Counted from the stretch's first letter, positions 1 to 13,242 are shown. The stretch is DNA of 13,242 bases from Planctomycetaceae bacterium (GCA_007133715.1 SLMF01000032.1:1-13242); one strand, 5' to 3'. Notes: a model not told the origin generated them from the letters alone. Program-made: numbers and translations.

Positions 1-3000
1 CTGAATTCTCGCAACTGGACGATCACTTGGCCGACCTGGTCGCTGGTATCGATGCCCTTCATCCGCAGATTCTGTTGGAACGTACGGCGGATATCCTCCC
101 AGCGTCGGGCTTCTTCCGGGTTCAGCCGTCCCAGCAGTTCCTTGAACTTCAGCAGGTTTGCTTCCGTATTGCGGGTCAGCGTCTGAGCGTCGTTTTCGTA
201 GTTCGACAGGATCAGCGACTCGAGTTCCTGATCATTCATGATCGGCAGCACACGTTCGGCGATGCGGTTCATATTGCGGTAGGAACCTTGCAGCAGGAAA
301 GGCGGTTCCGTCCGATATTCATCGGCTTGGGCGGCCGAGCGGATATACTGCTGGTTGACCTGGAGGACGACATCGCGGACGCGGAGCAGTTTCCGCATGG
401 TGATCACGAAGTCATTGATTTCCTCCAAGCTGTAGTTGCCTTCCAGTTCGACGCCTTGGCGGACGTCTTCCTGGGCCATGCGGAGGATGGCGTAGACGTC
501 TTGCTGGCTGCGGGCGGCCAGTTGGTTGAGCACCGGGTTGGAGGTCAGGCAGTTTTCCAGGTAGCTCATTTCGAACACGTCGCGGGAATCGCCGATGATT
601 TCGCCCAGGTTATAGATATCAGCCCGGTTGGCCAGCATATCGGGGATCTGGAACACTTCGCCGCTTTCCGTATAGGGGTTTCCGGCCATGACGACGCAGA
701 TTTTCCGTCCGCGCAGGTCGTAGGTGCGAGTGCGTCCGCGATAGACGCCTTCGATCTTCCGCTGGGCGTCGCAGAGCGAGATGAACTTCTGCAGGAACTC
801 GGGATGGCAATGCTGGATGTCATCCACGTAGAGCATCACGTTATCGCCCATTTCCAGGGCCAGGTTCAATTTGTGCAGTTCTTCCCGGGCGGCCGCATTG
901 GGCGCTTCGGCCGGGTCCAGCGAGGTGACCTGATGCCCGACGGCGGGCCCGTTGATCTTCATGAAGATGATGCCCAAGCGGTTGGCGATGTATTCCATCA
1001 AGGTGGTCTTGCCATAGCCGGGCGGCGAGATGACCAGCAGCAGTCCCATCCGATCGGTGCGTTTCGCCTCGCCGGCCACGCCGATCTGTTTGGCCAGGTT
1101 GTCGCCGATCAGGGGCAGGTAGACCTGGTCGATCAACCGGTTCCGCACGAAGGAGGTGAGCACACGGGGTTTGAATTCGTCCAGTCTCAGGGTGTGGCGG
1201 GTCTGCTGGACCAGCTCTTTTTTCCGAGCGACATAGCGGCGGAAGCGGGGGACCACCTCCCGCTCATACCGGCTCAAGCGGGTCAGGAAGTGGTTATAGT
1301 TCAAGCGGTAGGTTCCCTGCTGGAGCTGCGGGTGGGAGCCGACCAATCCGTCGACCTCCCGCGTGACTTGGCCCTCCAGCACGCGTTCCGGCCGGGGCGG
1401 ATCGTCCCACAGCAGCAGGGCCACTTCGTCCACGTATTCGCCATCCTCGTGCTCGCGGGAACCGCGGTGGTCCAGGAACGAGGAGACCCAATCGCGGAGC
1501 AGGAGCAGGGTGCTGGTCGGGTCGTCCTGCAGATCTTGGAGGGAAGCGTGGAAGCGGGCCGTGTAATCGTGCTGGCGCAGGCGCCGCTGAAAGGCCTCGC
1601 ACAACGCGACGGCATGCCGGCTGACCACGAAGCGGGCATCGCCGCTGAGTTCGGCAAACAGGTATTCGGCCGCCTCCGCGGCCCGCCAGGGTTCGAACAG
1701 CCCCGCCTGTCGGGCCCAAGCGTCCAGCATGTCGAGCAATTCCGTGCGATACTGTTGCTGGGCCGAGGCTTCCGGGAACAGGCGGGCCACGGTGGCGAAG
1801 CCGGCCAATTGGGCCTGCATCCGCCGCTTCTGCTCCCGATCGCCGAAGGCTCGCCAGAAGCATTGCCCCATGGCTCGGGCTGGCGGCGAGAAACGCAGCA
1901 GGCCGACGGTGTGCTGCATTTCCAGCAGCGTCATCAGCAGTCGGCCCGCATCGTGATCGTGGACGCCCTTGGAATAGGATTCGTGGTAGCGGGGGCCCAT
2001 GAACCGCTGGATGAAGGCTTCGCGGGCCGCATCGTCCCACTCCAGCAGTTCTGCGCCCGTGGGAACGGATTCGCCCGGTTCAGCCGCCGGGCGGGTCAGG
2101 TACAGCAGCAGTTGGTAAGCCAGGTATTCGCCGCGATAGACGTGGCGGTTCTCGGACACCACCTCCTGTTCCCAGAAGTCGCGCAGCTCGAGCAGTTCCG
2201 GATCTTCGATCGGTTCGAAGAAATTCGTGCCGGACAGATGAAAACACATCTGTTCCTCGCGCAGCACGGTGGTCAATTCCAGCGGCTGGACGTTGACGGA
2301 GAAGCGGTGTTTTCCCAGCCGGATGATCATCGCCCCGTCGACGAACAGCTCCTGGCGGTCCTTCAGCTGGCGGACGGCATCTTCGCGGATGGTCTTCAAC
2401 TGGCTCTGCAGGTCGTCGACTTTGACGCTGTCACCCAAGTCGGCCAGCTGCTGGATCAGGTCGCGGACCTTTTGGATCATCAGGTCGGCGGCGAAGTAGC
2501 TGTGGATATCTTGGATCGTGGGGAGCGCCCCGACGCGGGCCTGGATCCCTTTCAGGATCCGTTCGGCGGCGCGGGTTAACGACCCGGCGCGGCGGTTGCG
2601 GGCTTCGACCAACTGCAGCTTGCGGGTCTCGAAGGCGTTGTAGATCTCGTCACGCTTCTCGGTCAGCTGCTGGACGAACTCGTCGAACTCGGCGAAGCGG
2701 CCTTCCAGCTCTTCCAGCTGGATCATCAGGCGGGTGAGCAGTTCTTCGCATTTTTCCGGGGTCTCGCTGACGTCCAGGTAGTTCACCACGCTCTGGTTCA
2801 GCAGTTTCATTTGCGAGGCGAATTCGGCCACGCCCTCGACGGACAGGAGTTCCTTGATCTTGCGTTTGAGGCCCGCCCGGGCGGTGTTGACGCGAGCGAA
2901 GATCGCCGAGATATGGTCGACGATGGTGGTCCGCTGGAGCGCGTCGTCGATCTTCAGGTTGCTGACGATATCGATCAGCAATTCCAGATCCCGCGCGGCT

Positions 3001-4883
3001 TCGCCGACCTGTGCTTCCAACTGGCGCGCGTCGCGGACGCGGGCCAGCGGTTCGATCGCCGCGGCCTGTTGATCCACTCGCTGGGCGTAGGGTTCGAGCG
3101 CGCGCGGGTCCAGCAGGAACTGGACGCAACGCTGGGCCAGCCGGTCCGCATGTTCGACCACCTCCGTTTCCAGCTGCTGGACGCGTTCGGGATGGACATA
3201 GCGGAGATCGCGGAGGCTGATGATCTCTCCGCGGACGGCCCGCAGTTCGGCCAGCGAGCGGACGAAATCGTCCACGTGTTCGAACCGGCGACGGTGGAGG
3301 GCTGCCAGAATCTCCTCGGCCTGCCCCGCCACGCGGCGGGTCTCGCGCGCGGTGTTTTCTCGCAGCCGCGTGACCTTCTCGAACTCCTCGATCGCCGCCG
3401 AGGCCGTGCCGCGGATCTCGGCCAACACCTCCTGCAGGCGGAAACACTCGGGACTGTCGATCCAGAAATAGCTGTCGCATACGTCGCCCGCCAGCTTGGC
3501 CAGATCGACATAAAGATTGCCGTAGGTGTCCTCCTTGGCGATCAGGTTCAGCACCTCATGGCATTCGGCCATGGCCCGGACCAGATCGCGGTTGCCGATC
3601 TTGAACAGGAGGGAATCGGATTTGGCGGGCGGCACGATCTCTTGGCGGAGGTAAGGCGTCTGCCAGATCTGCAGGGCATGATGCTTCTGCGGCTCCTGCT
3701 GGGCGCGGAACAGGATCAACTCGCCGCCGGGAAAGAAGGCCGCCCCGTTGCACGGCAGCGGGGTCTGCAACTGCTGGTCGATCACATTGTAACGCAACAG
3801 CACGTGTTCGCCGCTGTCGCGATTGTAGAACACGTACAAATAGTCCTCGCCATTCGGGGCCGCCAGCCGCCGCTCGAACAGCATGTCCGTCCATTCGTTC
3901 TCGAAAACCTTGTACTCGCCACTCTGCAAATAGTAGCCGTTGGCAAAGATGATCCCGTGATCGTCCGGCAGCAGCACGCAGGCGTGAGCCAGCGAATCCA
4001 GCCGCAGCGCCTGCTGGATCTTCTCGTTGTAGACGATATAGCGGAACTCGCGTTCCAGATAGGGCCGGATCTTCAGCAGGATCAGGTTGCCGACGATCGC
4101 GTAAGAGAACTCGCCGTCGTCCAGCGTCTGGTCCTTGTTCTCGACATCCTCCGCGTAGATACCTTCGCCCGAGTCGGTGTTGTTTTCGATCTTGATCGTC
4201 AGATCGCCCCCCACCGTCTCGACAAACACCCGATCCTCGATCGAGATGTGCGGATGCACCCCCGGCCGATGCTGGTCCCGGGTGGTGCGCACCCACGGGA
4301 ACTCGTATTGCGGCGGGTAGCGGAACTCGTGGTCGCTGCGGTTGTCCAGATACACCAGCCGTGAGCCGTCCAGGGCCCATTTGAACGTCTTGATATCCGA
4401 AACCTGCTGGCCCACGCGGAAGACCATGAACAGATGCGGCCCGATCAGCGAAAACTTGGCGAACACCGCATGGCGATAGTAGCGATAGACCTCGCGCAGA
4501 TCGCGTTCGAAACGCTCGTCGCGAATCAGCTCGAGATCATGCTGATGGAACGTGCCCTCGCGGAGTTCATGCACTGCGAACACGTCCGACAACTGGGTTT
4601 CCGTCTTCAACCCCAGGTGCACGTTGTAGCCGAAGATGAAGCGGTTGCCGATGGCCACCAGATCGCGGGGGACGCAATTGTGCTCGGTGGTAATCCGTTC
4701 GGTGCTGACCAGCCGCGTCTCGATCGCACCGAAGACCTCCTTGCGCGCCTGGTTCAGTAGTTCCAGGCGGTTGCGCAATTCGCGTGCCTGAGTCTGCAAC
4801 CGATTCCGAATGACCTCGTACGTGCCGCCTTCCAGCTGGATCGCAGCGGGCTCGGCGGCCGGGGTGCGGGCGTCGTCAGCCAT
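1..4883 (-). CDS. Giant multidomain AAA+ ATPase, MoxR/AAA_5-like clade; 5' end and first 1627 codons in the window, 3' end beyond the window start. Layout: N-terminal ~560-aa non-ATPase domain, central ~700-aa alpha-helical region, C-terminal AAA+ module.
   Basis: I translated the minus-strand frame aligned with codon triplets 3-5 up to 4881-4883. It is open from ATG 4883..4881 down to base 3, with a stop (plus tca 4899-4901) just upstream. It is preceded by the flotillin stop after a 4-nt gap. GC3 is strong and amino-acid composition looks real. N-terminus: MADDARTPAAEPAAIQLEGGTYEVIRNRLQTQARELRNRLELL... Walker A LLLVISPPGYGKTTL lies at plus 999..1043 (Lys approx residue 1292). Walker B NVMLYVDDIQ lies at 813..842. 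Sensor-1 CVVMAGNPYT (the NP motif typical of MoxR/midasin/dynein AAA_5) lies at 669..698. A sensor-2-like GSYRNMNRI lies at 261..287. The plus-strand ORFs 27..2579, 2811..4364 and 4434..4760 share one frame and are split only by plus TAA/TGA/TAG, which the minus frame reads as Leu/Ser/Leu. They are antisense shadows rich in L/P/H/Q/R/V/A/D/G with almost no Lys. Confidence 0.8.
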   Translation of the reverse strand, partial: MADDARTPAAEPAAIQLEGGTYEVIRNRLQTQARELRNRLELLNQARKEVFGAIETRLVSTERITTEHNCVPRDLVAIGNRFIFGYNVHLGLKTETQLSDVFAVHELREGTFHQHDLELIRDERFERDLREVYRYYRHAVFAKFSLIGPHLFMVFRVGQQVSDIKTFKWALDGSRLVYLDNRSDHEFRYPPQYEFPWVRTTRDQHRPGVHPHISIEDRVFVETVGGDLTIKIENNTDSGEGIYAEDVENKDQTLDDGEFSYAIVGNLILLKIRPYLEREFRYIVYNEKIQQALRLDSLAHACVLLPDDHGIIFANGYYLQSGEYKVFENEWTDMLFERRLAAPNGEDYLYVFYNRDSGEHVLLRYNVIDQQLQTPLPCNGAAFFPGGELILFRAQQEPQKHHALQIWQTPYLRQEIVPPAKSDSLLFKIGNRDLVRAMAECHEVLNLIAKEDTYGNLYVDLAKLAGDVCDSYFWIDSPECFRLQEVLAEIRGTASAAIEEFEKVTRLRENTARETRRVAGQAEEILAALHRRRFEHVDDFVRSLAELRAVRGEIISLRDLRYVHPERVQQLETEVVEHADRLAQRCVQFLLDPRALEPYAQRVDQQAAAIEPLARVRDARQLEAQVGEAARDLELLIDIVSNLKIDDALQRTTIVDHISAIFARVNTARAGLKRKIKELLSVEGVAEFASQMKLLNQSVVNYLDVSETPEKCEELLTRLMIQLEELEGRFAEFDEFVQQLTEKRDEIYNAFETRKLQLVEARNRRAGSLTRAAERILKGIQARVGALPTIQDIHSYFAADLMIQKVRDLIQQLADLGDSVKVDDLQSQLKTIREDAVRQLKDRQELFVDGAMIIRLGKHRFSVNVQPLELTTVLREEQMCFHLSGTNFFEPIEDPELLELRDFWEQEVVSENRHVYRGEYLAYQLLLYLTRPAAEPGESVPTGAELLEWDDAAREAFIQRFMGPRYHESYSKGVHDHDAGRLLMTLLEMQHTVGLLRFSPPARAMGQCFWRAFGDREQKRRMQAQLAGFATVARLFPEASAQQQYRTELLDMLDAWARQAGLFEPWRAAEAAEYLFAELSGDARFVVSRHAVALCEAFQRRLRQHDYTARFHASLQDLQDDPTSTLLLLRDWVSSFLDHRGSREHEDGEYVDEVALLLWDDPPRPERVLEGQVTREVDGLVGSHPQLQQGTYRLNYNHFLTRLSRYEREVVPRFRRYVARKKELVQQTRHTLRLDEFKPRVLTSFVRNRLIDQVYLPLIGDNLAKQIGVAGEAKRTDRMGLLLVISPPGYGKTTLMEYIANRLGIIFMKINGPAVGHQVTSLDPAEAPNAAAREELHKLNLALEMGDNVMLYVDDIQHCHPEFLQKFISLCDAQRKIEGVYRGRTRTYDLRGRKICVVMAGNPYTESGEVFQIPDMLANRADIYNLGEIIGDSRDVFEMSYLENCLTSNPVLNQLAARSQQDVYAILRMAQEDVRQGVELEGNYSLEEINDFVITMRKLLRVRDVVLQVNQQYIRSAAQADEYRTEPPFLLQGSYRNMNRIAERVLPIMNDQELESLILSNYENDAQTLTRNTEANLLKFKELLGRLNPEEARRWEDIRRTFQQNLRMKGIDTSDQVGQVIVQLREF

Positions 4884-4887
4884 CAGA

Positions 4888-6879
4888 TCACGCTTCCTTC
4901 AATTCGAGCGCAGACACCTTACGATCGGAGATCCCCAAACGCTTGACCGCATGTAACAGGCGACTCAGTTCACTCTTTGCTTCGTCGCTGTCGGTCATCC
5001 CCATCATTTTGGCGATCAGGGCGGCTACCGACAGATCTTTGATATCTTCGGCGCTCAGATCGAAGCGGCCGATGAACTGCTGCAGCTTGTCCTGGAAGTA
5101 TTCCGGATTGCCGTTGAAGAAGGTATTCTTCACATCGGTCAAGGTCTGGCTGTTATTCACCAGGCGATCGACCGCTTTGCCGCCCTGGACCGCTTCCACG
5201 ATCTTGTCGAAGAAGCTGGTTTCGCCGCCCACGATATCGATCCGTGCGCTCTTGAGGGCTTCGCCGACGATTCCTGCCTGGGCCTGAGCGATCAACCGCT
5301 GGGCGTCGATCGTGGCCAGATCGATATCCTTGTCCTTGTTCAACCGCAGCTTGAACTCCTCGTGTTCTTTGCCGACGCTGTCGAACAGCTTCATGGCCTC
5401 CGCTTTTTCTTCGATGCCTTGGGCCTCGCTGCTGAACTTCAATTTCAGCACATTGGCTTCGGCCGTGCCCTGTTTTTCCAGGGCCGTCGCTTTGGCCTGG
5501 ATCACTTGGGCCTCGGCCAGACCGCCCGCGGCCTGGTCGGCCGTCTTGGCCTCCGCCAGCATTTTGGTGGCCTGCATCTGCTTTTCAGAAACCTGCCGCT
5601 CGGCCTCGGCTTCGACCACCACCTGTTCTGCTCGCAGGGCCGCTGCCAGTTTGGCCGCTTCGGCCGCCTTGACCTGCCGCACCATCGCCTCCTGAGCCGC
5701 CATCTCCGCCTGCGTCACCTGGACCCGCTTCTGCCGATCCGCCCCGGCAAACTGCTCCGTGTCCTTGATCCGCTCCTGCTCCTCGACCACCGACCGCTCG
5801 ACCGCCACCCGCTCGCGAATCACCTCCTGAATGTTCCGCCGCTCGACTTCGACCGCCTTGTCCTTGTCGATCTGAGCCAAGGCCACCACGCGTTCCCGCT
5901 CGGTCGCCTCCAGATCCCGGTCCCGCGTGACACGCTCCCGTTCCACCGCGTCCGTCCGCTCCTTGTTCCGCTGGGCCACAATCACCTGCCGCTCCTTGTT
6001 CTCCTCGGCCACCATCAACTCCTCGTCCGTGCGGATCTGGGCGCTCTGCGAACGCAAACGCTCCTGCTCCTGGACCATGCGGGCCTCGGCCTGCTGCCGC
6101 GCCGTGACCTCCGCCACCTCCCGCTGCTGCTTCTGCTCCGCCTCGATCTGCTGCCGCTCCAACACCAGAATCGCCTCCCGCGCCTCGACGTCCTGCTTCT
6201 TGATCGTCTTCTCCTTCTCGCGATTGATCTCGTTGGCCAGGATATGTTCCCGCGCGGTCAGGTCCGTGATCTTCTTGATCCCCATCGCATCCAGAATGTT
6301 CTGCGGATCCATCATGCCCACCGAGGTCTGTTCCAGATAGTCGATGGCACAATCGTCCAGCACGTAGCCGTTCAAATCGGTCCCGATGACCTTCAGAATC
6401 TCCTCCTTGAATTTGTCGCGTTCCTCGTACAACTCGACGAAATCGAACCGCTTGCCGACCGTTTTCAAGGCCTCGGAAAACTTGGCATCAAACAATTCGA
6501 CCAGCGCAGCCTGATCGGAAGCCCGGCGGCAGCCCAGCGATTGCGCCACCTGCAGGATCGCATCCCGCGTGTTGTTCACGCGGACAAAGAAAGCCACCTC
6601 GATGTCCGCCCGCATGTTATCCCGGCAGATCAAGCCCTGGCTGCCCTTGCGGTGGATCGGAATCCGCTTCACCGACAAATCCATCCGCTCGCCCCGGTGG
6701 ACCACGGGGTAGACCATGATCCCCTGGCCCGTCACGGCCACCAACCCATGCCAACCGGAACGGATCAGCGCCTCTTCCGGACCCACCTTTTGGTAAAACG
6801 TGTTCAACAAAAAGGCGACGGCCACAAAACCAAACACACACAACGCCAACACGGCGCCGACAATCAACAGGATCTCCAT
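4888..6879 (-). CDS. Flotillin-like SPFH/Band-7 protein (YqiK/FloT-like), 664 aa. N-terminal TM helix, SPFH domain, long E/R/Q/A-rich coiled coil, C-terminal flotillin tail.
   Basis: Translation from ATG 6879..6877: MEILLIVGAVLALCVFGFVAVAFLLNTFYQKVGPEEALIRSGWHGLVAVTGQGIMVYPVVHRGERMDLSVKRIPI... has a hydrophobic N-terminus followed by an SPFH core, then about 300 aa of heptad-like EAEQKQQREVAEV... sequence. The track start at 7239 overlaps the upstream gene. I chose the internal ATG because it is preceded by GAGGTGGAG (SD) with 7-nt spacing and sits exactly at the upstream gene's stop (TGATG). Confidence 0.88.
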   Translation of the reverse strand: MEILLIVGAVLALCVFGFVAVAFLLNTFYQKVGPEEALIRSGWHGLVAVTGQGIMVYPVVHRGERMDLSVKRIPIHRKGSQGLICRDNMRADIEVAFFVRVNNTRDAILQVAQSLGCRRASDQAALVELFDAKFSEALKTVGKRFDFVELYEERDKFKEEILKVIGTDLNGYVLDDCAIDYLEQTSVGMMDPQNILDAMGIKKITDLTAREHILANEINREKEKTIKKQDVEAREAILVLERQQIEAEQKQQREVAEVTARQQAEARMVQEQERLRSQSAQIRTDEELMVAEENKERQVIVAQRNKERTDAVERERVTRDRDLEATERERVVALAQIDKDKAVEVERRNIQEVIRERVAVERSVVEEQERIKDTEQFAGADRQKRVQVTQAEMAAQEAMVRQVKAAEAAKLAAALRAEQVVVEAEAERQVSEKQMQATKMLAEAKTADQAAGGLAEAQVIQAKATALEKQGTAEANVLKLKFSSEAQGIEEKAEAMKLFDSVGKEHEEFKLRLNKDKDIDLATIDAQRLIAQAQAGIVGEALKSARIDIVGGETSFFDKIVEAVQGGKAVDRLVNNSQTLTDVKNTFFNGNPEYFQDKLQQFIGRFDLSAEDIKDLSVAALIAKMMGMTDSDEAKSELSRLLHAVKRLGISDRKVSALELKEA

Positions 6880-7526
6880 CACTCCACCTCTGCTTCCCCG
6901 GTTGTCACGAAATAGATTTGCTTTGCGGGATCGAAACCGACAATCGTGGCCGCATCCCCCTGAGACAACGGAGGACCGTCCTGCGTCCGAACATGGAGCC
7001 TCAACGGTGCCCCCTCCGTCGCATACTCCGCTTGACCAAACTGCTCGTTCACCACGCTGCTGACCACCCGGCAGGTCTTTCCCAGCATCTGTTCTGCGGG
7101 ATGGGGCGGCGAAACGTCGAATTTTCCTCGCAAGGGGTAGGTCAAAACCTTCGTCCCCACCAACGCCAAGGCCGCGTTCCGGAGAGCGTACTGCCCCGCC
7201 ACCCACCACGACTCGCGCAGCAGCGGATCGTCCAACCACCGATCAAACGCCACCGAGACTGCCCACCAAAGAAGTGAGAATACGCTCAACCAGATCACCA
7301 AGGGCACGCGCCCCAGGTGCAAGAACCGCAGCAGCACCACGCCGACACCCACCACCTCCTGCAGATCCGGATGACCATCCAGATCCAGGTCGAAATCCAG
7401 GATTTGCAGATCCATCCCGGCCAGGATGGCCAGCGACCAGTACACGCTGAGCAGGAGCAACAGCAAGCTGGCCGGGAGTGTCGCCCCCGAGAAGCAGCTG
7501 TGCAAAAACTCCAGGAACTCCGACAT
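6879..7526 (-). CDS. NfeD/YqiJ-like membrane protein (215 aa). N-terminal hydrophobic helices plus a C-terminal NfeD OB-fold beta-barrel. The usual partner of SPFH proteins.
   Basis: MSEFLEFLHSCFSGATLPASLLLLLLSVYWSLAILAGM... and ...VIWLSVFSLLWWAVSVAF are TM segments. The C-terminus GKTCRVVSSVVNEQFGQAEYATEGAPLRLHVRTQDGPPLSQGDAATIVGFDPAKQIYFV shows the NfeD OB-fold pattern of alternating G/V/hydrophobic residues. Gene order and size match E. coli yqiJ-yqiK. Confidence 0.72.
   Translation of the reverse strand: MSEFLEFLHSCFSGATLPASLLLLLLSVYWSLAILAGMDLQILDFDLDLDGHPDLQEVVGVGVVLLRFLHLGRVPLVIWLSVFSLLWWAVSVAFDRWLDDPLLRESWWVAGQYALRNAALALVGTKVLTYPLRGKFDVSPPHPAEQMLGKTCRVVSSVVNEQFGQAEYATEGAPLRLHVRTQDGPPLSQGDAATIVGFDPAKQIYFVTTGEAEVE
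6880..6890 (-). promoter_or_regulatory. Shine-Dalgarno (GAGGTGGAG) for the flotillin gene, embedded in the 3' end of the NfeD-like gene
   Basis: The minus-strand sequence reads AGAGGTGGAGTGATG. The NfeD stop TGA and the flotillin ATG overlap by 1 nt. Confidence 0.6.
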
Positions 7527-7811
7527 TGCCTAAACCCTTTTTATTGACTGATCGAACTAATTATGCGCCCAAGTGGGTGTCGGCTGAAGTCTTTTCGCTG
7601 TGAACCGCGTCAAATTGGGCAAAATTCTGTAATCCGCTTCCCACGGAGGCGAATACCCTTCGTAGGCAGGTGATGTAAGCAGCCAAACGAACCACTCAAG
7701 CCCCGCGGATCGTGCGAGGTCGTTCAAGTTGCCGGGCCGTAATCGCCGATACGATCGATTGGAAGAATAGTGGATTCCCATTGGCGGGTTCGAAAATGAA
7801 GGGATTGAAGA

Positions 7812-9302
7812 ATGCGAACGAAAGGAATCGTCTGCGGACTTGCGCTGGTGATCTCCCTCCTTGGAGCGGGTCGCGTACTGGCGAGCGAGTCAGAGAGAAA
7901 CGTCGCGACGGCGGTTCCCGCCATCTCGATTCAGACTAGCGTGCTGGCGGAGATCAACGTAGGCACGAAGACCCAGGTGGCGATTATCGTCAAAAATAGT
8001 GGTCAGTCGGTGGCGGAAGGGGTCTCGATCCAGACGCAGCTGCCGGACAGTGTCACGTATCAGGGCGCGGTACCGGCGCCGAGCATGAGTTCGGACCGGA
8101 TGATCCAATTCGAGATCGGCGATTTGGCGGCGGGTTCCGAGCATCGGATCGTGATCGATTTGATACCGGAGCGACCGGGTCCGGTGGATTTGGAGACGCG
8201 TGCCTTTTTTGCCGCGTCGACCAAATCGGCGATGCAAATCCGTCGGCCGGAGGTGATGATCGAATCGCGCGCACCGGAAACGGTGGTGGTGGGCGAGGAG
8301 GTTGAATTTCAAGTCGTGTTGAAGAATGTGGGCGATGGAGTCGCCCGCGACGTCGTGCTGACTCCCGACTTTCCTTCCGCAGCCGCTTCCGCATCGCGAA
8401 CCGCGCCCGAGACCACCAGTCTGAGTGGCAGCGAGTCGCAGGAATACCGTTTTACCGCGCGGGCCACGGAGGGAGAATGGCTGGTGGGCCAGTTCGTTGC
8501 GGTGACGGCCGATGGGCGTCAGGTGGAGAGCGAGAGCCGCGTCCGCATTCTACATCCGGCCTTGCAGGTGCAACTAAATGGACCCCGAGGGGGGTTTGTG
8601 AATCAAGAGGGCGAGTACGAAATCGTGGTTTCGAACCCCGGTGACACGACCATCGAGCAGGGTGCGGTCACGCTGCGTGTTCCCGAGGGTCTGCGGGTCA
8701 CCGCGATTTCCGACCAGGCGCACTTGGAAGACAACCATCGCAAACTGGTCTGGTGTTTGGAACCGCTCGCACCGGGCAAATCCCGCTCGCTGATGGTGAA
8801 GGCCGTGGCGGGGCAGGTCGGACCGCACCGGCAGACGGTGGTGGCCGAGGGCACTCCGCAGTTGGTCGCCCGCGACGAGCATTTGACGCTGGTCTTCTCG
8901 CGAGCCAATGTCGACTTGTCGGTCACCAATCGCAGCGAGGCCAATGAAGTGGGGGCGGCGGAGACATTCACGGTCCGCGTCAAGAACCACGGCTCGCGGG
9001 TGGCGGAGCAGGTGTCCGTCCAGGTAGTTCTGCCGGATGCCATGGTGCCGTTGGAATCGTCGGAGTATGCTCAGGATGGTCAGCGGATCAGTTTCCCGGC
9101 CCTGCAATTGAAGCCGGGGCAAGAGGGGCAGCTGGAGTTCCAGGCGACGGGTGTCACGGCGGGCGATTTTGCCGTCCGCGCCCGTTTGGAGAGCGATTTC
9201 AGCCGCACTCCGATCGTGGCGGAAACCACGGTCTATTTCTTTGACCAAGAGGAACTCGAACGTTTGGCGAGCGAAGTGGACGATTCGGTCCGTTTACGCT
9301 GA
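7812..9302 (+). CDS. Secreted cell-surface protein with four DUF11 (conserved repeat domain) Ig-like repeats, 496 aa
   Basis: Signal peptide MRTKGIVCGLALVISLLGAGRVLA/SE. Four repeats of about 110 aa each carry the DUF11 hallmark hxhxVxNxGxxxAxxVxhxxxLP: VAIIVKNSGQSVAEGVSIQTQLPDSV, VEFQVVLKNVGDGVARDVVLTPDFP, YEIVVSNPGDTTIEQGAVTLRVPEGL and FTVRVKNHGSRVAEQVSVQVVLPDAM. GAAGGGA lies 8-14 nt upstream of ATG 7812. Confidence 0.8.
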   Translation: MRTKGIVCGLALVISLLGAGRVLASESERNVATAVPAISIQTSVLAEINVGTKTQVAIIVKNSGQSVAEGVSIQTQLPDSVTYQGAVPAPSMSSDRMIQFEIGDLAAGSEHRIVIDLIPERPGPVDLETRAFFAASTKSAMQIRRPEVMIESRAPETVVVGEEVEFQVVLKNVGDGVARDVVLTPDFPSAAASASRTAPETTSLSGSESQEYRFTARATEGEWLVGQFVAVTADGRQVESESRVRILHPALQVQLNGPRGGFVNQEGEYEIVVSNPGDTTIEQGAVTLRVPEGLRVTAISDQAHLEDNHRKLVWCLEPLAPGKSRSLMVKAVAGQVGPHRQTVVAEGTPQLVARDEHLTLVFSRANVDLSVTNRSEANEVGAAETFTVRVKNHGSRVAEQVSVQVVLPDAMVPLESSEYAQDGQRISFPALQLKPGQEGQLEFQATGVTAGDFAVRARLESDFSRTPIVAETTVYFFDQEELERLASEVDDSVRLR

Positions 9303-9815: not shown

Positions 9816-11006
9816 TCAGGCCGCTTGGCGGTTGTGGCGGACTACCTCGCCGATCGCTTGCACCACGCGCTGCAATTCGACATCGGCCAGTTCCGGAAAG
9901 ATCGGCAGACTGAGCACCTCGCGGGCCGCTCGCTCGGTCTCCGGAAGACTGCCCGGTCCATAGCCCAAGGGGCGGAAGCATTCCTGCTGGTGCAAGCCCA
10001 GCGGGTAATAGATTTCCGTACCGATCTGCTGGTCCGCCAATTGCCCCCGCAGGGTATCCCGCAAACCGTGCGGCACGCGGACGGTGAATTGGTTCCAGAC
10101 GTGAAAGCGATCGGGAACTTCGTATGGCAGCTGCACCCAGTCCGCCAAGCCGGCTTGAGAAAACAGCTGGTGGTACCGTGCCGCATTGGCGCGCCGCTGT
10201 TCACACCATCTTCCCAGTTGCGTGATTTTGACATTCAACACGGCGGCCTGGAGGGAATCCAAGCGGCTGTTGATACCGACCGTGTGGTGGTAGTAGCGGA
10301 TTTGCATGCCGTGGGCGGACAATTGCCGCAGTTTGTCGGCCAGCGATGGGCGTTGGGTGGTCAGCATGCCTCCGTCGCCGAAGCCGCCCAGATTCTTGGT
10401 GGGATAGAAGCTGAAGCAGCCGATATCGCCCATCGATCCTGCGGGCTGTCCTTGGAATTCGGCTCCGATCGCTTGGGCCACGTCTTCGATCACGGCCACC
10501 CCGTGGCGTCGGGCGATCGCCTGAATGGCATCCATTTGGGCACATTGGCCGAACAAATGGACCACCAGAATGGCTTTGGTCGCTGGCGTGATGGCCGCTT
10601 CGATCTGGGCCGGGTCGATGTTGAACGTGTCCGCTTCGATATCGGCGAACACGATGCGTGCCCCCAGCCGCCAGATGCAGCTGGCCGTCGCAAAGAACGT
10701 GAAGCTGGGCGTAATCACCTCGTCGCCCGGTTTGATATCCAGCGCCATCAGGGCCAGCAGCAGGGCATCGCTGCCGGAGGCGCAGCCGACGGCGTGCTGG
10801 GTCTGGCAGATCGCGGCCACCGACTGTTCCAGTTGCTGGACATCGGGGCCGTAGAGGAATCGACCCGAATCACAAACCCCTCGGATCGCCGCCAGGATTT
10901 CTTCACGTAGCGGCTGGTTTCCACGCTGGACGTCCAGCAGGGGCACCGCTTCCGGGGGCGAATCCGGATTGGAGGAGGAGGGGAGGTTCGAGGGGGCGGT
11001 CTTCAT
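9816..11006 (-). CDS. DegT/DnrJ/EryC1/StrS-family PLP-dependent sugar aminotransferase (396 aa)
   Basis: The conserved N-terminal block VPLLDVQRGNQPLREEILAAIRGVCDSGRFLYGPDV is present. So are the DALLLALMALDIKPGDEVITPSFTFFAT block and the PLP-lysine region GDIGCFSFYPTKNLGGFGDGGM. AGGAAG lies 8 nt upstream of ATG 11006. The plus ORF 9411..10910 is its antisense shadow. Confidence 0.9.
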   Translation of the reverse strand: MKTAPSNLPSSSNPDSPPEAVPLLDVQRGNQPLREEILAAIRGVCDSGRFLYGPDVQQLEQSVAAICQTQHAVGCASGSDALLLALMALDIKPGDEVITPSFTFFATASCIWRLGARIVFADIEADTFNIDPAQIEAAITPATKAILVVHLFGQCAQMDAIQAIARRHGVAVIEDVAQAIGAEFQGQPAGSMGDIGCFSFYPTKNLGGFGDGGMLTTQRPSLADKLRQLSAHGMQIRYYHHTVGINSRLDSLQAAVLNVKITQLGRWCEQRRANAARYHQLFSQAGLADWVQLPYEVPDRFHVWNQFTVRVPHGLRDTLRGQLADQQIGTEIYYPLGLHQQECFRPLGYGPGSLPETERAAREVLSLPIFPELADVELQRVVQAIGEVVRHNRQAA

Positions 11007-11014
11007 AAGGTTAG

Positions 11015-11020
11015 CTTCCT
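11015..11020 (-). promoter_or_regulatory. Shine-Dalgarno AGGAAG for the DegT-family gene
   Basis: The minus strand reads AGGAAGCTAACCTT ATG. Confidence 0.5.
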
Positions 11021-11574
11021 TGCCTGTGTGCGAACGAATGACCGGGAAACGGTCCCCAAAAAATAAGCAAGGCCCAGATTACGCAACCTGTCGCGGGAGG
11101 TCAAGATCGGCTGGTCCCGTGCGCGTCGCTCGGATACTCGGGGCGAATCAACCGCGAAACACACGAAAAACCTGCGCTGAAGCCGGGATCCCCGCAGAAA
11201 AACCCCTCTTCCGTACTGAAAGGCCACGAGGAACCCGGAGCGCCTCTCTGGTGCAGATGCTGGAAGCGGGCCAGAATGTCGAGCCACGAGTCGCGTTGCC
11301 AAACCTCCTGCCACAGATGGTCCGTGGGATAGCCATGCGGATAGAGTCCGGAGTTTGAAGGCGAATATCTTCTCACGCGGACACGCCCAGCACTCCGGCC
11401 GAACCATCCAGCGCCCGGCACCGGCTGTCCAACACGGTTGGGGCCGTCTGATTGCCGTGCAATTGTTCCAGCCTCCATCACGTGGCCGGTTGCGTCTGTT
11501 GAAGGAACGCCAGGAACACGCCGGGATCGAGATGTAGCTGGCCAGATTCTCGGCGATTTACCTCGGATCGGGAT

Positions 11575-11796
11575 TCAACGAGCCGGTCGGTGCGAAAACA
11601 AGTGGGATTGGGTGGTATCGGACCCGACTTCGACGGGCCGATTTGGATCGCCAAGTAATTGTCGCAGATCTTTCGGGCGGTATGAGCCTGTGCGCTGGTA
11701 CTCTTCGATCATTGCTCTAACCCAATCGGCCGGAGGAAGCTCATGCAGTTTCGCCCGAATTTCCCGTTGGAGATCATCGTCGGTCACAGTAGACAT
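11575..11796 (-). CDS. Small hypothetical protein (73 aa), acidic and helical. Second gene of a lower-GC two-gene module.
   Basis: MSTVTDDDLQREIRAKLHELPPADWVRAMIEEYQRTGSYRPKDLRQLLGDPNRPVEVGSDTTQSHLFSHRPAR. I chose the internal ATG at 11796..11794 rather than the track start at 11880 because a perfect AAGGAGG SD (plus 11805-11811) lies 8 nt upstream. The start overlaps the upstream ORF by 23 nt. Confidence 0.5.
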   Translation of the reverse strand: MSTVTDDDLQREIRAKLHELPPADWVRAMIEEYQRTGSYRPKDLRQLLGDPNRPVEVGSDTTQSHLFSHRPAR

Positions 11797-12328
11797 CGAA
11801 AAAGCCTCCTTCCCCAATGGCTGCATCAAAACTCTTGTGACGTACCCAACGGAATTTTCTGTCGGTGGTGATAGCAGCAATCTCTACAGGACCCCCGCAT
11901 ACGGGGGCGATATGCGAAAACTTCAGCATCTTGATTGTAGTGTAAATCGATGCATGCACCCAGTCAATCGCCTCGCGGATTGGCAAGTCGCGAGGTTGGC
12001 CCAGACACGACGCTTGAACCAAGTCGAGCAGGTCTTTCTCGCTCCCGGTCCACTTGGTCGACTGAAAAATTCGCATGAAGAGGGGCTCGTCGATACCATA
12101 TAATAGCCGGTCTAACAGATTTGGGCAGCCCCAGAATCGGGTGCTTCCGACGGCAAGCGCTTCGATCGGGACTGGAGCGGTAAGGGTCGGAGCGTACCGC
12201 ACCTCAAAAGCGGCGGGCCGACGGTCTTTCATCAAATACCCCCCCAAGCAGAATCCACCGGAGTAATTCTGTGTAATCCGGCTCAGTTCGTCCTCTTCCT
12301 CCGGCGTTCTTGTCGGTTGCCCATACAA
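11774..12328 (-). CDS. Hypothetical protein (184 aa from the TTG start; real start uncertain, and an internal ATG may be used). No family recognised.
   Basis: Amino-acid composition is balanced (K, N, Y, W, M all present): ...FEVRYAPTLTAPVPIEALAVGSTRFWGCPNLLDRLLYGIDEPLFMRIFQSTKWTGSEKDLLDLVQASCLGQPRDLPIREAIDWVHASIYTTIKMLKFSHIAPVCGGPVEIAAITTDRKFRWV... Local GC is about 52-57% against about 65-68% for neighbouring genes. There is no in-frame ATG between the upstream stop (12362-12364) and the TTG at 12328. Confidence 0.45.
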   Translation of the reverse strand: MYGQPTRTPEEEDELSRITQNYSGGFCLGGYLMKDRRPAAFEVRYAPTLTAPVPIEALAVGSTRFWGCPNLLDRLLYGIDEPLFMRIFQSTKWTGSEKDLLDLVQASCLGQPRDLPIREAIDWVHASIYTTIKMLKFSHIAPVCGGPVEIAAITTDRKFRWVRHKSFDAAIGEGGFFDVYCDRR

Positions 12329-12456
12329 GACCCTCTGCGGACAGATAGCATGCGGCGATTGTCATGGTCACAACCTCGGGCTCTTAGTGATGCTAACGGC
12401 CACCACGAGCAGCAAAAAACAGCACAATCGCGGGAGAAGTCAACAGAAACAACGCC

Positions 12457-12494
12457 CCGCAGAAGCACCGTGTTGCTCGGCGGGGCTTCTGCGG
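12457..12494. repeat. Inverted repeat CCGCAGAAGC ... GCTTCTGCGG (10-bp arms, 18-nt loop) in the divergent promoter region
   Basis: Arms at 12457-12466 and 12485-12494 are exact reverse complements. It sits between the minus-strand 184-aa gene and the plus-strand secreted-protein gene. Confidence 0.55.
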
Positions 12495-12588
12495 TACGAG
12501 GGGGAATCGGCCTTGATCTGCGGGGCGGATTTCGTTAGATCCCCGGCAGCTCTTTTCAAGATCTTGAGCCTTTTCGGCGAAAAATTCC

Positions 12589-13242
12589 ATGGCACGACGC
12601 TTTCATTGCTGGTTACTCGGGGTTGCGCTGGCAGCTTTGCCCGCCGCAGTCCGCTCGACCGACGCTTCGGAATCCGCGGTGCGACTGGCCGCGACCGGCG
12701 TGCTGGAAAAACAGGTCGACCCTCGGGGCAGCCAGTACGTTCTGTTGGACGAGCGGGGCGAAGCCTTGTATCACGTGGCGGGTTCCGAGCGGGTGGATTT
12801 GACCCGTTTTGCGGGCCAGCAGGTCGAGGTTGTGGGTACGCTTCGGTCTCGGGGTCGGCCTGCGTTGCAGGAGTTGCAAGCGGATTGGATCGCTCCAGCC
12901 TCCCGCGTAGTTCCCGCCCATTTTGTTGAGATCACGGACGAGAGTTCGGTGCTGGCGGATCCGGCAGCCCGTCCTCTGCCCGACCTGGACGACGACCCCC
13001 CGCCGATGGAGCCAATTCGGCCCGAGGGCCGGTCTCCCGGCGAACTGCCGGTACCGCCGGACTCGCTACGGGCACCTCCCAGTGGTGACTCCCAGACCAC
13101 TGAACGCCGACGTCTGATCTTCGAGGGACCGCGAAACTGGGAACCGGGCCACGAACGCCAGTACCCTCCCCACAGCCAGAGCGTACCTCCCCATTTCGAA
13201 CCTTATGATCGCAGCAGGTCGCCTGCGGCAACTGCCAGTCAC
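12589..13242 (+). CDS. Secreted protein, 5' portion (218 codons), running off the window end. Signal peptide, a small globular segment, then a Pro-rich low-complexity region.
   Basis: I translated frame 12589 by hand: MARRFHCWLLGVALAALPAAVRSTDASESAVRLAATGVLEKQVDPRGSQYVLLDERGEALYHVAGSERVDLTRFAGQQVEVVGTLRSRGRPALQELQADWIAPASRVVPAHFVEITDESSVLADPAARPLPDLDDDPPPMEPIRPEGRSPGELPVPPDSLRAPPSGDSQTTERRRLIFEGPRNWEPGHERQYPPHSQSVPPHFEPYDRSRSPAATASH... The frame has a stop at 12565-12567 and then stays open to the window end. It is absent from the ORF track because it has no stop. Confidence 0.55.
   Translation, partial: MARRFHCWLLGVALAALPAAVRSTDASESAVRLAATGVLEKQVDPRGSQYVLLDERGEALYHVAGSERVDLTRFAGQQVEVVGTLRSRGRPALQELQADWIAPASRVVPAHFVEITDESSVLADPAARPLPDLDDDPPPMEPIRPEGRSPGELPVPPDSLRAPPSGDSQTTERRRLIFEGPRNWEPGHERQYPPHSQSVPPHFEPYDRSRSPAATASH

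Follow-up and report, generated by a model that had tools for sequence, protein, structure and literature searches.

A planctomycete NfeD-flotillin-AAA+ ATPase operon as an abbreviated form of a conserved bacterial module

A 13,242-nt stretch of DNA from a Planctomycetaceae bacterium (GCA_007133715.1, SLMF01000032.1:1-13242), referred to throughout as the window, encodes on its minus strand a YqiJ/NfeD-like membrane protein, a YqiK-type flotillin with an SPFH domain and a giant cytosolic AAA+ ATPase. These three genes are a real conserved module, spread across many bacterial phyla, and the window is a planctomycete, abbreviated example of a known, computationally defined system. The function of bacterial flotillins is still debated, and one flotillin subfamily is nearly always encoded with this very large AAA+ ATPase, a pairing that spans at least nine phyla. 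The likeliest role of the module, for which belief runs slightly ahead of doubt, would be to use ATP to remodel membrane scaffolds of flotillin and/or PspA when the envelope is under stress, the substrate and the stress role both being putative.

Conservation of the three-gene unit

Relatives of the ATPase were sought in one genome per species (185,579 species genomes), and at least 587 were found. The best 80 loci of these at least 587 belong to Planctomycetota, Bacteroidota, Verrucomicrobiota, Desulfobacterota, Clostridia and Fibrobacterota. Hidden Markov models of the neighbouring genes were searched against six-frame translations, and the count was taken over the 61 loci whose upstream DNA reaches 3.5 kb or more. 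A flotillin gene lies directly upstream of the ATPase gene, on the same strand, in 58 of the 61, and an NfeD gene is present in addition to the flotillin in 53, with the order of the three genes retained. Two look-ups seeded with the flotillin likewise return the triad. It is present in Symmachiella dynata, in Gimesia aquarii and on a metagenomic contig reached from the flotillin side, and records of Pseudomonas (plasmid pQBR103), Streptomyces and Deinococcus carry it in their annotation. The counts and the flotillin-seeded look-ups together bear out the original prediction, made from the window alone, of a conserved and tightly coupled operon. Chance juxtaposition, which that prediction had named as the alternative, is rejected, because linkage in 58 of 61 loci across phyla cannot be chance.

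Across 41 loci the pairwise identities of the ATPase are correlated with those of the flotillin (r = 0.83, matrix against matrix), a value that fits inheritance of the genes as a unit and is no proof of physical contact between their products. Identity between pairs averages 0.50 (ATPase), 0.55 (flotillin) and 0.28 (NfeD gene).

PspA neighbours and the published operon

A PspA gene adjoins the flotillin-ATPase pair both on chromosomes of Bacteroidota and on a megaplasmid of Pseudomonas. Among the Bacteroidota, up to 17 loci (neighbour clusters c5, c3 and c4) have a CesT_Tir_1 gene followed by a PspA/IM30 gene directly before the module, together with a divergent helix-turn-helix (HTH) regulator, and the order in Flavobacteriia and Cytophagia is HTH (opposite strand), CesT_Tir_1, PspA, NfeD, flotillin, ATPase. 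The clusters that occur in at least 12 loci are flotillin, NfeD, PspA, CesT_Tir and HTH, while DUF559 and PDDEXK_3 genes are present in few. On pQBR103, the megaplasmid of P. fluorescens SBW25 (L084, NC_009444.1 85422-104305), the module ends a long row of same-strand genes that encode PspA, a rhomboid protease, DUF2491, DUF350 and DUF1190 proteins and glutathionylspermidine synthase, and then a 217-aa hypothetical protein, an SPFH protein and the 'DNA repair ATPase'; the next gene, on the opposite strand, is of MvaT/MvaU type.

An operon of this kind has been described by Ravi et al. 2024 (mSystems 9:e00847-23, PMC11237479), who report CesT/Tir-PspA operons that include three further proteins: a three-transmembrane YqiJ/YuaF protein, a protein with band-7 and flotillin domains, and a protein that combines a beta-propeller, a coiled coil and an AAA+ domain. 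The archetype is that of Dokdonia donghaensis (ANH61663.1), whose gene order is that of the Flavobacteriia loci found here. Abbreviated, PspA-less operons are also listed and are called more widely distributed, and the operon is placed among the phage-shock-protein (PSP) envelope-stress systems with an interpretation in terms of membrane dynamics (PMC11237479). The published operon and the window agree in the three proteins, in their order and in their domain architectures. They differ in that the full published form has PspA, CesT/Tir and the HTH regulator and the window does not, and it is the lack of adjacent CesT/Tir and PspA genes that makes the window an abbreviated form. The published account is computational only, and the parts of its text drawn on here name neither DUF3686, the family to which the N-terminal region of the giant ATPase belongs, nor planctomycete examples (PMC11237479). 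The original prediction had presented the system as undescribed, which is wrong because Ravi et al. cover both the operon and its abbreviated form. What is added here is the linkage count, models of two of the three components, a candidate interaction surface, and evidence against the 'DNA repair' label of the ATPase and against an anti-phage reading. Literature searches on DUF3686, on PF12458, on 'DNA repair ATPase' with flotillin, and on YqiK with YqiJ and ATPase found no paper.

Some relatives depart from the simple three-gene arrangement. In several, a gene for a DUF559 protein (a Vsr-like endonuclease) or for a PDDEXK_3 nuclease fold lies between flotillin and ATPase (L016 818-1258, L027 9524-9946 and L032, cluster c11; L028 9504-9923 and L073, cluster c14); in our reading they could be selfish genes that were inserted there, where the window has just the 4-nt spacer. 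Four loci (L022 15504-15980, L046 1317-1802, L074 and L075) have near the module a gene for a protein of about 160 aa (cluster c13), which by its sequence appears to carry a single-HKD-like motif and so echoes the HKD hydrolase included in some of the published operons (PMC11237479). Five Verrucomicrobiota loci (L050, L067, L072, L074, L075) have a divergent flotillin of 724-810 aa upstream, with 37-41% identity to that of the window; an NfeD-like gene is undetectable in four of them, and in L074 the upstream DNA is too short to judge.

Gene structure

Translation confirms the order of the three genes, their shared strand and their coordinates as first proposed (Table 1), and both junctions are as they had been described. 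The NfeD-like and flotillin genes meet in a TGATG, in which the flotillin ATG (6879-6877) and the NfeD TGA (6881-6879) have one base in common, and the flotillin TGA (4890-4888) is followed after the 4-nt spacer by the ATPase ATG (4883-4881). The ATPase frame is open through base 1, and the window edge cuts the gene after 1627 aa, in agreement with the predicted size of more than 1600 aa. The full-length protein of a relative with 97% identity (P0001, contig L002) has 1772 aa, and the same two genes lie upstream of its gene.

The further statement that the operon leaves no room for an internal promoter can be upheld just for promoters placed between the genes. No sigma-70 consensus site was found at 4600-7900, where 0.7 would be expected by chance, in a scan that leaves planctomycete promoter types uncovered, and promoter, terminator and Rfam scans gave nothing informative. 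The intergenic region between the operon and the divergent gene upstream is likely to be the promoter region, with no sigma-70 consensus site in it.

Table 1. Features of the module in the window; positions are counted from the first letter of the window and residues are those of the encoded proteins. AF2, AlphaFold2; pLDDT, predicted local distance difference test.
Feature	Position	Strand	Details and basis
YqiJ/NfeD-like membrane protein gene	7526..6879	minus	215 aa; translation
YqiK-type flotillin (SPFH) gene	6879..4888	minus	663 aa plus stop; translation
Giant cytosolic AAA+ ATPase gene	4883..1	minus	first 1627 of ~1772 aa; translation
TGATG stop/start overlap of NfeD-like and flotillin genes	6877..6881	minus	sequence
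Flotillin TGA, 4-nt spacer TCTG, ATPase ATG	4881..4890	minus	sequence
285-nt intergenic region between operon and divergent DUF11/CARDB gene	7527..7811	.	gene positions
Flotillin N-terminal membrane anchor, aa 1-30	6790..6879	minus	hydropathy; AF2 helix 2-28
Flotillin SPFH alpha/beta domain, aa 31-190	6310..6789	minus	AF2 pLDDT ~75-85; YqiK alignment
Flotillin long helical coiled-coil 'flotillin' region, aa 200-479	5443..6282	minus	AF2; YqiK homology
Flotillin C-terminal module, aa 480-663	4891..5442	minus	conservation across phyla
ATPase DUF3686 region, aa 35-473, holding beta-propeller aa 57-408	3465..4781	minus	Pfam; AF2; Foldseek
ATPase helical, coiled-coil region, aa 483-844, including DUF7902 (window 2850-3101)	2352..3437	minus	
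ATPase small beta domain (aa 853-891) and helical domain (aa 917-1160)	1404..2327	minus	AF2
AAA+ ATPase core, aa 1245-1430	594..1151	minus	invariant columns; Pfam; PDB matches
Walker A SPPGYGKTT, aa 1286-1294	1002..1028	minus	translation; invariant in 41 homologues
Walker B MLYVDDIQH, aa 1350-1358, Asp-Asp not Asp-Glu	810..836	minus	translation; D1354 and D1355 invariant

The flotillin and its membrane partner

Standard family models are nearly silent on the flotillin. Pfam Band_7 gives no match at any threshold, NCBIfam gives just a 15-bit match to FloT, and sequence and profile searches against PDB sequences return nothing significant. Because Band_7 is silent, the flotillin label was drawn from hhalign and from a fold search, both of which uphold the flotillin/YqiK-like assignment of the original prediction. 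The family profile aligns with E. coli YqiK (99.9-100%, E 1e-34 to 5e-43) across the anchor, the SPFH domain and the coiled coil, with homology extending to about aa 444-471. The best Foldseek matches in the PDB to the AF2 model, which is of a monomer, are the flotillin complex, prohibitin, stomatin, HflK/C, QmcA-YbbJ and erlin; E values against flotillin, prohibitin, stomatin and HflK/C chains run from 1e-10 to 1e-7, and the SPFH domain is aligned to the Band 7 domain of flotillin-2 and to stomatin SPFH domains.

The N-terminal anchor of the flotillin is strongly hydrophobic, with a Kyte-Doolittle 19-residue mean of 3.05. No basic residue precedes the anchor and Lys31 follows it, so the protein is predicted by the positive-inside rule to face the cytoplasm. 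The model is helical from aa 200 to about 548, with long helices at 200-342 and 351-485. The last ~180 aa are a family-specific feature, shared by the flotillins encoded beside the ATPase and without recognizable likeness to the YqiK C-terminus of E. coli, and aa 481-600 retain 0.5-0.7 identity to the window in 59 sequences from multiple phyla; this C-terminal module is a candidate docking surface for the ATPase. By analogy with solved relatives the flotillin may form a cage, SPFH proteins being reported to build domed rings on membranes (PMC12624060), as the titles of the matched PDB entries also indicate.

In the NfeD-like protein, hydrophobic segments within aa 8-95 make up a multi-pass N-terminal membrane part of YqiJ type, and the C-terminal part is presumably a soluble NfeD (OB-fold) domain. 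The Pfam NfeD model finds no match in it, and the YqiJ_N match (E 2e-4, 21.9 bits) is under the cut-off of 23. A profile of 50 homologues aligns in hhalign with E. coli YqiJ over aa 11-211 (97%, E 8.8e-11), a span that does cover the C-terminal domain. It is on this alignment, together with the sub-threshold YqiJ_N match, that the NfeD/YqiJ-like label, as originally given, is retained.

The giant ATPase

The ATPase is a soluble protein made up of a propeller, helical bundles and one AAA+ core, and no hydrophobic segment is present in it (maximum 19-residue mean 1.42). Pfam places DUF3686 (PF12458), matched over its full profile, at aa 35-473 (E 1.3e-186), DUF7902 (PF25472) at aa 595-678 (E 8.8e-25) and AAA-type P-loop models at about aa 1266-1405; DUF3686 had been named in the original prediction, correctly. 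The small beta and helical domains at aa 853-1160 have no Pfam match. The AF2 model covers aa 1-1200 with a mean pLDDT of 79.8. A helix at aa 19-51 leads into the beta-propeller (aa 57-408, pLDDT about 80-90), which has ~7 blades by our count of DSSP strands; long helices at aa 425-844 form about 400 aa of helical bundles, and these are followed by the small beta domain at aa 853-891 and then the helical domain at aa 917-1160. Foldseek matches to the propeller are IFT-A, CyRPA, the clathrin heavy chain and prolyl oligopeptidase. A likeness to the membrane coats of eukaryotes or planctomycetes, which the IFT-A and clathrin matches might bring to mind, is not claimed, since TM-scores of about 0.1 reduce that likeness to 'propeller then helices'.

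Across 41 aligned, diverse homologues (identity down to 30%), conservation is highest in the AAA+ core. Invariant residues include, beyond the Walker motifs, the Asn of MAGNPYTE, which may be a sensor-1-like residue, and the Arg of NRAD, a putative Arg finger. The DDIQH of the Walker B motif presumably resembles that of DnaA. PDB sequence searches with the single sequence and with a 41-sequence profile match p97/CDC48, Rix7, VAT and RuvB at the P-loop only, and these searches found no solved structure that matches the protein beyond it.

The original prediction had assigned the core to the MoxR/AAA_5 type. The window ATPase scores 20.9 bits against AAA_5, where the cut-off is 22, and has no AAA_3 match; against PF00004 (AAA) it scores 25.5 bits, above the cut-off and confined to the surroundings of the P-loop, and AAA_22 and RuvB_N models match as well. 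When nine diverse relatives were scanned against Pfam as C-terminal fragments, both PF00004 and AAA_5 matched all nine at E <= 0.01; the AAA cut-off was exceeded in all nine and that of AAA_5 in eight (24-36.5 bits), with similar margins. MoxR operons typically have an adjacent gene for a VWA-domain partner, and none was seen among the recurring neighbour clusters, which were only partly scanned against Pfam. The original remark that the giant protein was not recognizable as any characterized family has stood up: no relative is experimentally characterized, and DUF3686/PF12458 goes unmentioned in the literature searched. A 1711-aa homologue, 63% identical, occurs in a eukaryotic sequence set (P0046; eukprot g33011.t1), where it is likely to be bacterial contamination because of its similarity to planctomycete proteins.

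Relationship to known systems

The first two genes are homologous to E. coli yqiJ-yqiK and identical in order. Sequence identity is only ~29%, the last ~180 aa of the window flotillin have no counterpart in YqiK, and E. coli yqiK is followed by sibD/ibsD with no ATPase gene, whereas in the window the ATPase gene occupies that place. A further E. coli pair, QmcA-YbbJ (PDB 8z5g), resembles the module in that an SPFH protein is encoded adjacent to an NfeD-family membrane protein. The fold search with the flotillin also picks out QmcA, but QmcA is stomatin-type and the window protein is flotillin-type.

The combination of an SPFH scaffold with an AAA+ machine recalls HflK/C-FtsH, the analogy drawn in the original prediction, and HflK/C chains do come up when the flotillin fold is searched. 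The analogy proves to be a loose one. FtsH is membrane-anchored and has an M41 protease domain, whereas the window ATPase has neither a membrane segment nor a protease domain; membership in the HflK/C-FtsH type is rejected on the absence of a hydrophobic segment and of a Peptidase_M41 match. The HflK/C cage, moreover, is periplasmic, whereas the window flotillin is predicted to be cytoplasmic.

A functional analogy may be drawn with Vps4 and ESCRT-III (Snf7), and with bacterial PspA and its associated AAA+ proteins: an AAA+ ATPase has a genetic link to a membrane-shaping polymer. PspA is a member of the ESCRT-III family (PMC11237479), and some relatives of the module directly adjoin a PspA gene. 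Unlike Vps4, the window ATPase has no MIT domain, and homology between the two is detectable only in the generic AAA+ core; unlike in the Vps4 and PspA systems, the constant partner in the module is the flotillin, with PspA present in some lineages only.

Proposed function and alternatives

In the proposed remodelling of membrane scaffolds, the flotillin and the NfeD protein would first build a dome-shaped SPFH scaffold at the cytoplasmic side of the membrane. The ATPase, which probably forms a ring of several subunits, would be recruited to this scaffold through its propeller and coiled-coil arm, for which the C-terminal module of the flotillin is a candidate docking site. When the membrane is stressed or under repair, ATP hydrolysis would then drive the assembly, disassembly or remodelling of the flotillin scaffold, of ESCRT-III-like PspA polymers or of both, in a manner analogous to the action of Vps4 on ESCRT-III. 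It is from the gene structure, the domains, the homology to YqiJ and YqiK, the SPFH and propeller folds, the linkage of the three genes and the repeated linkage to PspA that we infer topology, physical interaction, oligomeric state, ATPase substrate and stress role. A narrower version, in which the DUF3686 protein is a dedicated ATP-driven remodeller of flotillin cages and also of PspA/ESCRT-III polymers, with the propeller docking on the flotillin C-terminal module, is tentative and attracts more doubt than belief. If true, the module would be a machine by which bacteria repair membranes or turn over membrane domains, one that has no characterized counterpart, and it would give bacterial flotillins their first concrete biochemical partner. 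The module offers a testable handle on the energy-dependent turnover of SPFH scaffolds and on its relation to the PSP envelope-stress response.

Several observations weigh against scaffold remodelling by the module. Three of the 61 loci (L012, L020 and L042; ~5%) have no flotillin gene within 10 kb, which implies that the ATPase can persist without an adjacent flotillin gene, and in five others of the 61 the flotillin is more divergent and the NfeD gene undetectable. Neither PspA nor CesT/Tir nor the HTH regulator is encoded beside the module in the window, so that a link to PspA would here have to act in trans. The Walker B motif has Asp-Asp where Asp-Glu is usual, and the catalytic competence of the ATPase is for that reason assumed. 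Databases call the ATPase a 'DNA repair ATPase', and the literature searched reports no experiment on any member of the module.

Among the alternatives, protein quality control is unlikely, though not negligibly so. In that scheme the flotillin/NfeD scaffold would be a platform that gathers damaged membrane proteins, and the giant AAA+ protein would unfold or extract them, to remove them or pass them on. In function this would be like HflK/C-FtsH, except that the ATPase is a separate soluble protein and has no protease of its own. The closest P-loop matches are indeed to unfoldase-type AAA proteins (p97/CDC48, Rix7, VAT), but the similarity spans just ~35-90 residues around Walker A. SPFH cages are known partners of AAA proteases, and FtsH-HflK/C entries turn up in the fold search, yet the ATPase itself has neither a protease domain nor a membrane anchor; and the rhomboid protease gene in the pQBR103 operon has to be set against the finding that no protease gene is conserved beside the module. 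The database name raises a different alternative, that the giant protein acts in DNA repair and its flotillin neighbourhood has no functional meaning, to which we attach scarcely any credence. The names 'ATPase involved in DNA repair' (Pfam) and 'DNA repair ATPase' (NCBI) and weak RuvB_N matches speak for it, as may the presumed likeness of the Walker B motif to that of DnaA. The Pfam scan, however, finds no DNA-binding or nuclease domain, the similarity to RuvB is restricted to the P-loop, no repair gene recurs nearby and no paper was found to back the name, and linkage to two membrane proteins across phyla (a flotillin in 58/61 loci) would be left without meaning.

The original prediction had also entertained an anti-phage role. 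As an anti-phage or abortive-infection system, the module would couple a membrane-anchored SPFH/NfeD sensor to a large NTPase effector. This is now very improbable, the PADLOC, phage-record and neighbour-gene checks all being negative. Such a system would accord with the patchy distribution of the ATPase across species (at least 587 relatives in 185,579 species genomes), with the copy on megaplasmid pQBR103, and with the DUF559 or PDDEXK_3 genes between flotillin and ATPase and the putative single-HKD hydrolase gene nearby in some relatives. In PADLOC-DB v2.0.0, a database from 2023 that leaves newer systems uncovered, the three proteins have no significant match; the best for the ATPase are LmuB (E 5.7e-4, 17 bits, in coiled coil) and mad8 (E 1.9e-3), and the flotillin and NfeD proteins give none. 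Homologues of the ATPase are absent from 50,697 phage records and occur in just 13 of 72,556 plasmid records, the majority of which are megaplasmids or chromosomes under a wrong label. When 149 neighbour genes of 68 loci were sorted by family, four was the highest count for any defence family, generic regulators being commonest, and the recurrent partners are PspA and CesT/Tir rather than nucleases or toxins. Identity across phyla (flotillin 0.55, ATPase 0.50) is also high for a defence gene, and a literature search on SPFH, anti-phage and NfeD found no paper.

Sequences flanking the module

Upstream of the module the window carries a gene for a DUF11/CARDB-repeat protein (7812-9302, plus strand), which from its domains is likely to be secreted or located at the cell surface, and one for a DegT/DnrJ/EryC1 aminotransferase (9816-11006, minus strand); neither gene recurs beside the module in other loci. 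Beyond them, positions 11010-12560 are ~1.5 kb without a convincing open reading frame, where the G+C content is the lowest of the window (0.556-0.57); the reading frames tried there have no Pfam match, and no Rfam family was found in the region. The window closes with a 225-codon frame on the plus strand (12568-13242), which has a signal-peptide-like start, MARRFHCWLLGVALAALPAAV..., and runs past the window end.

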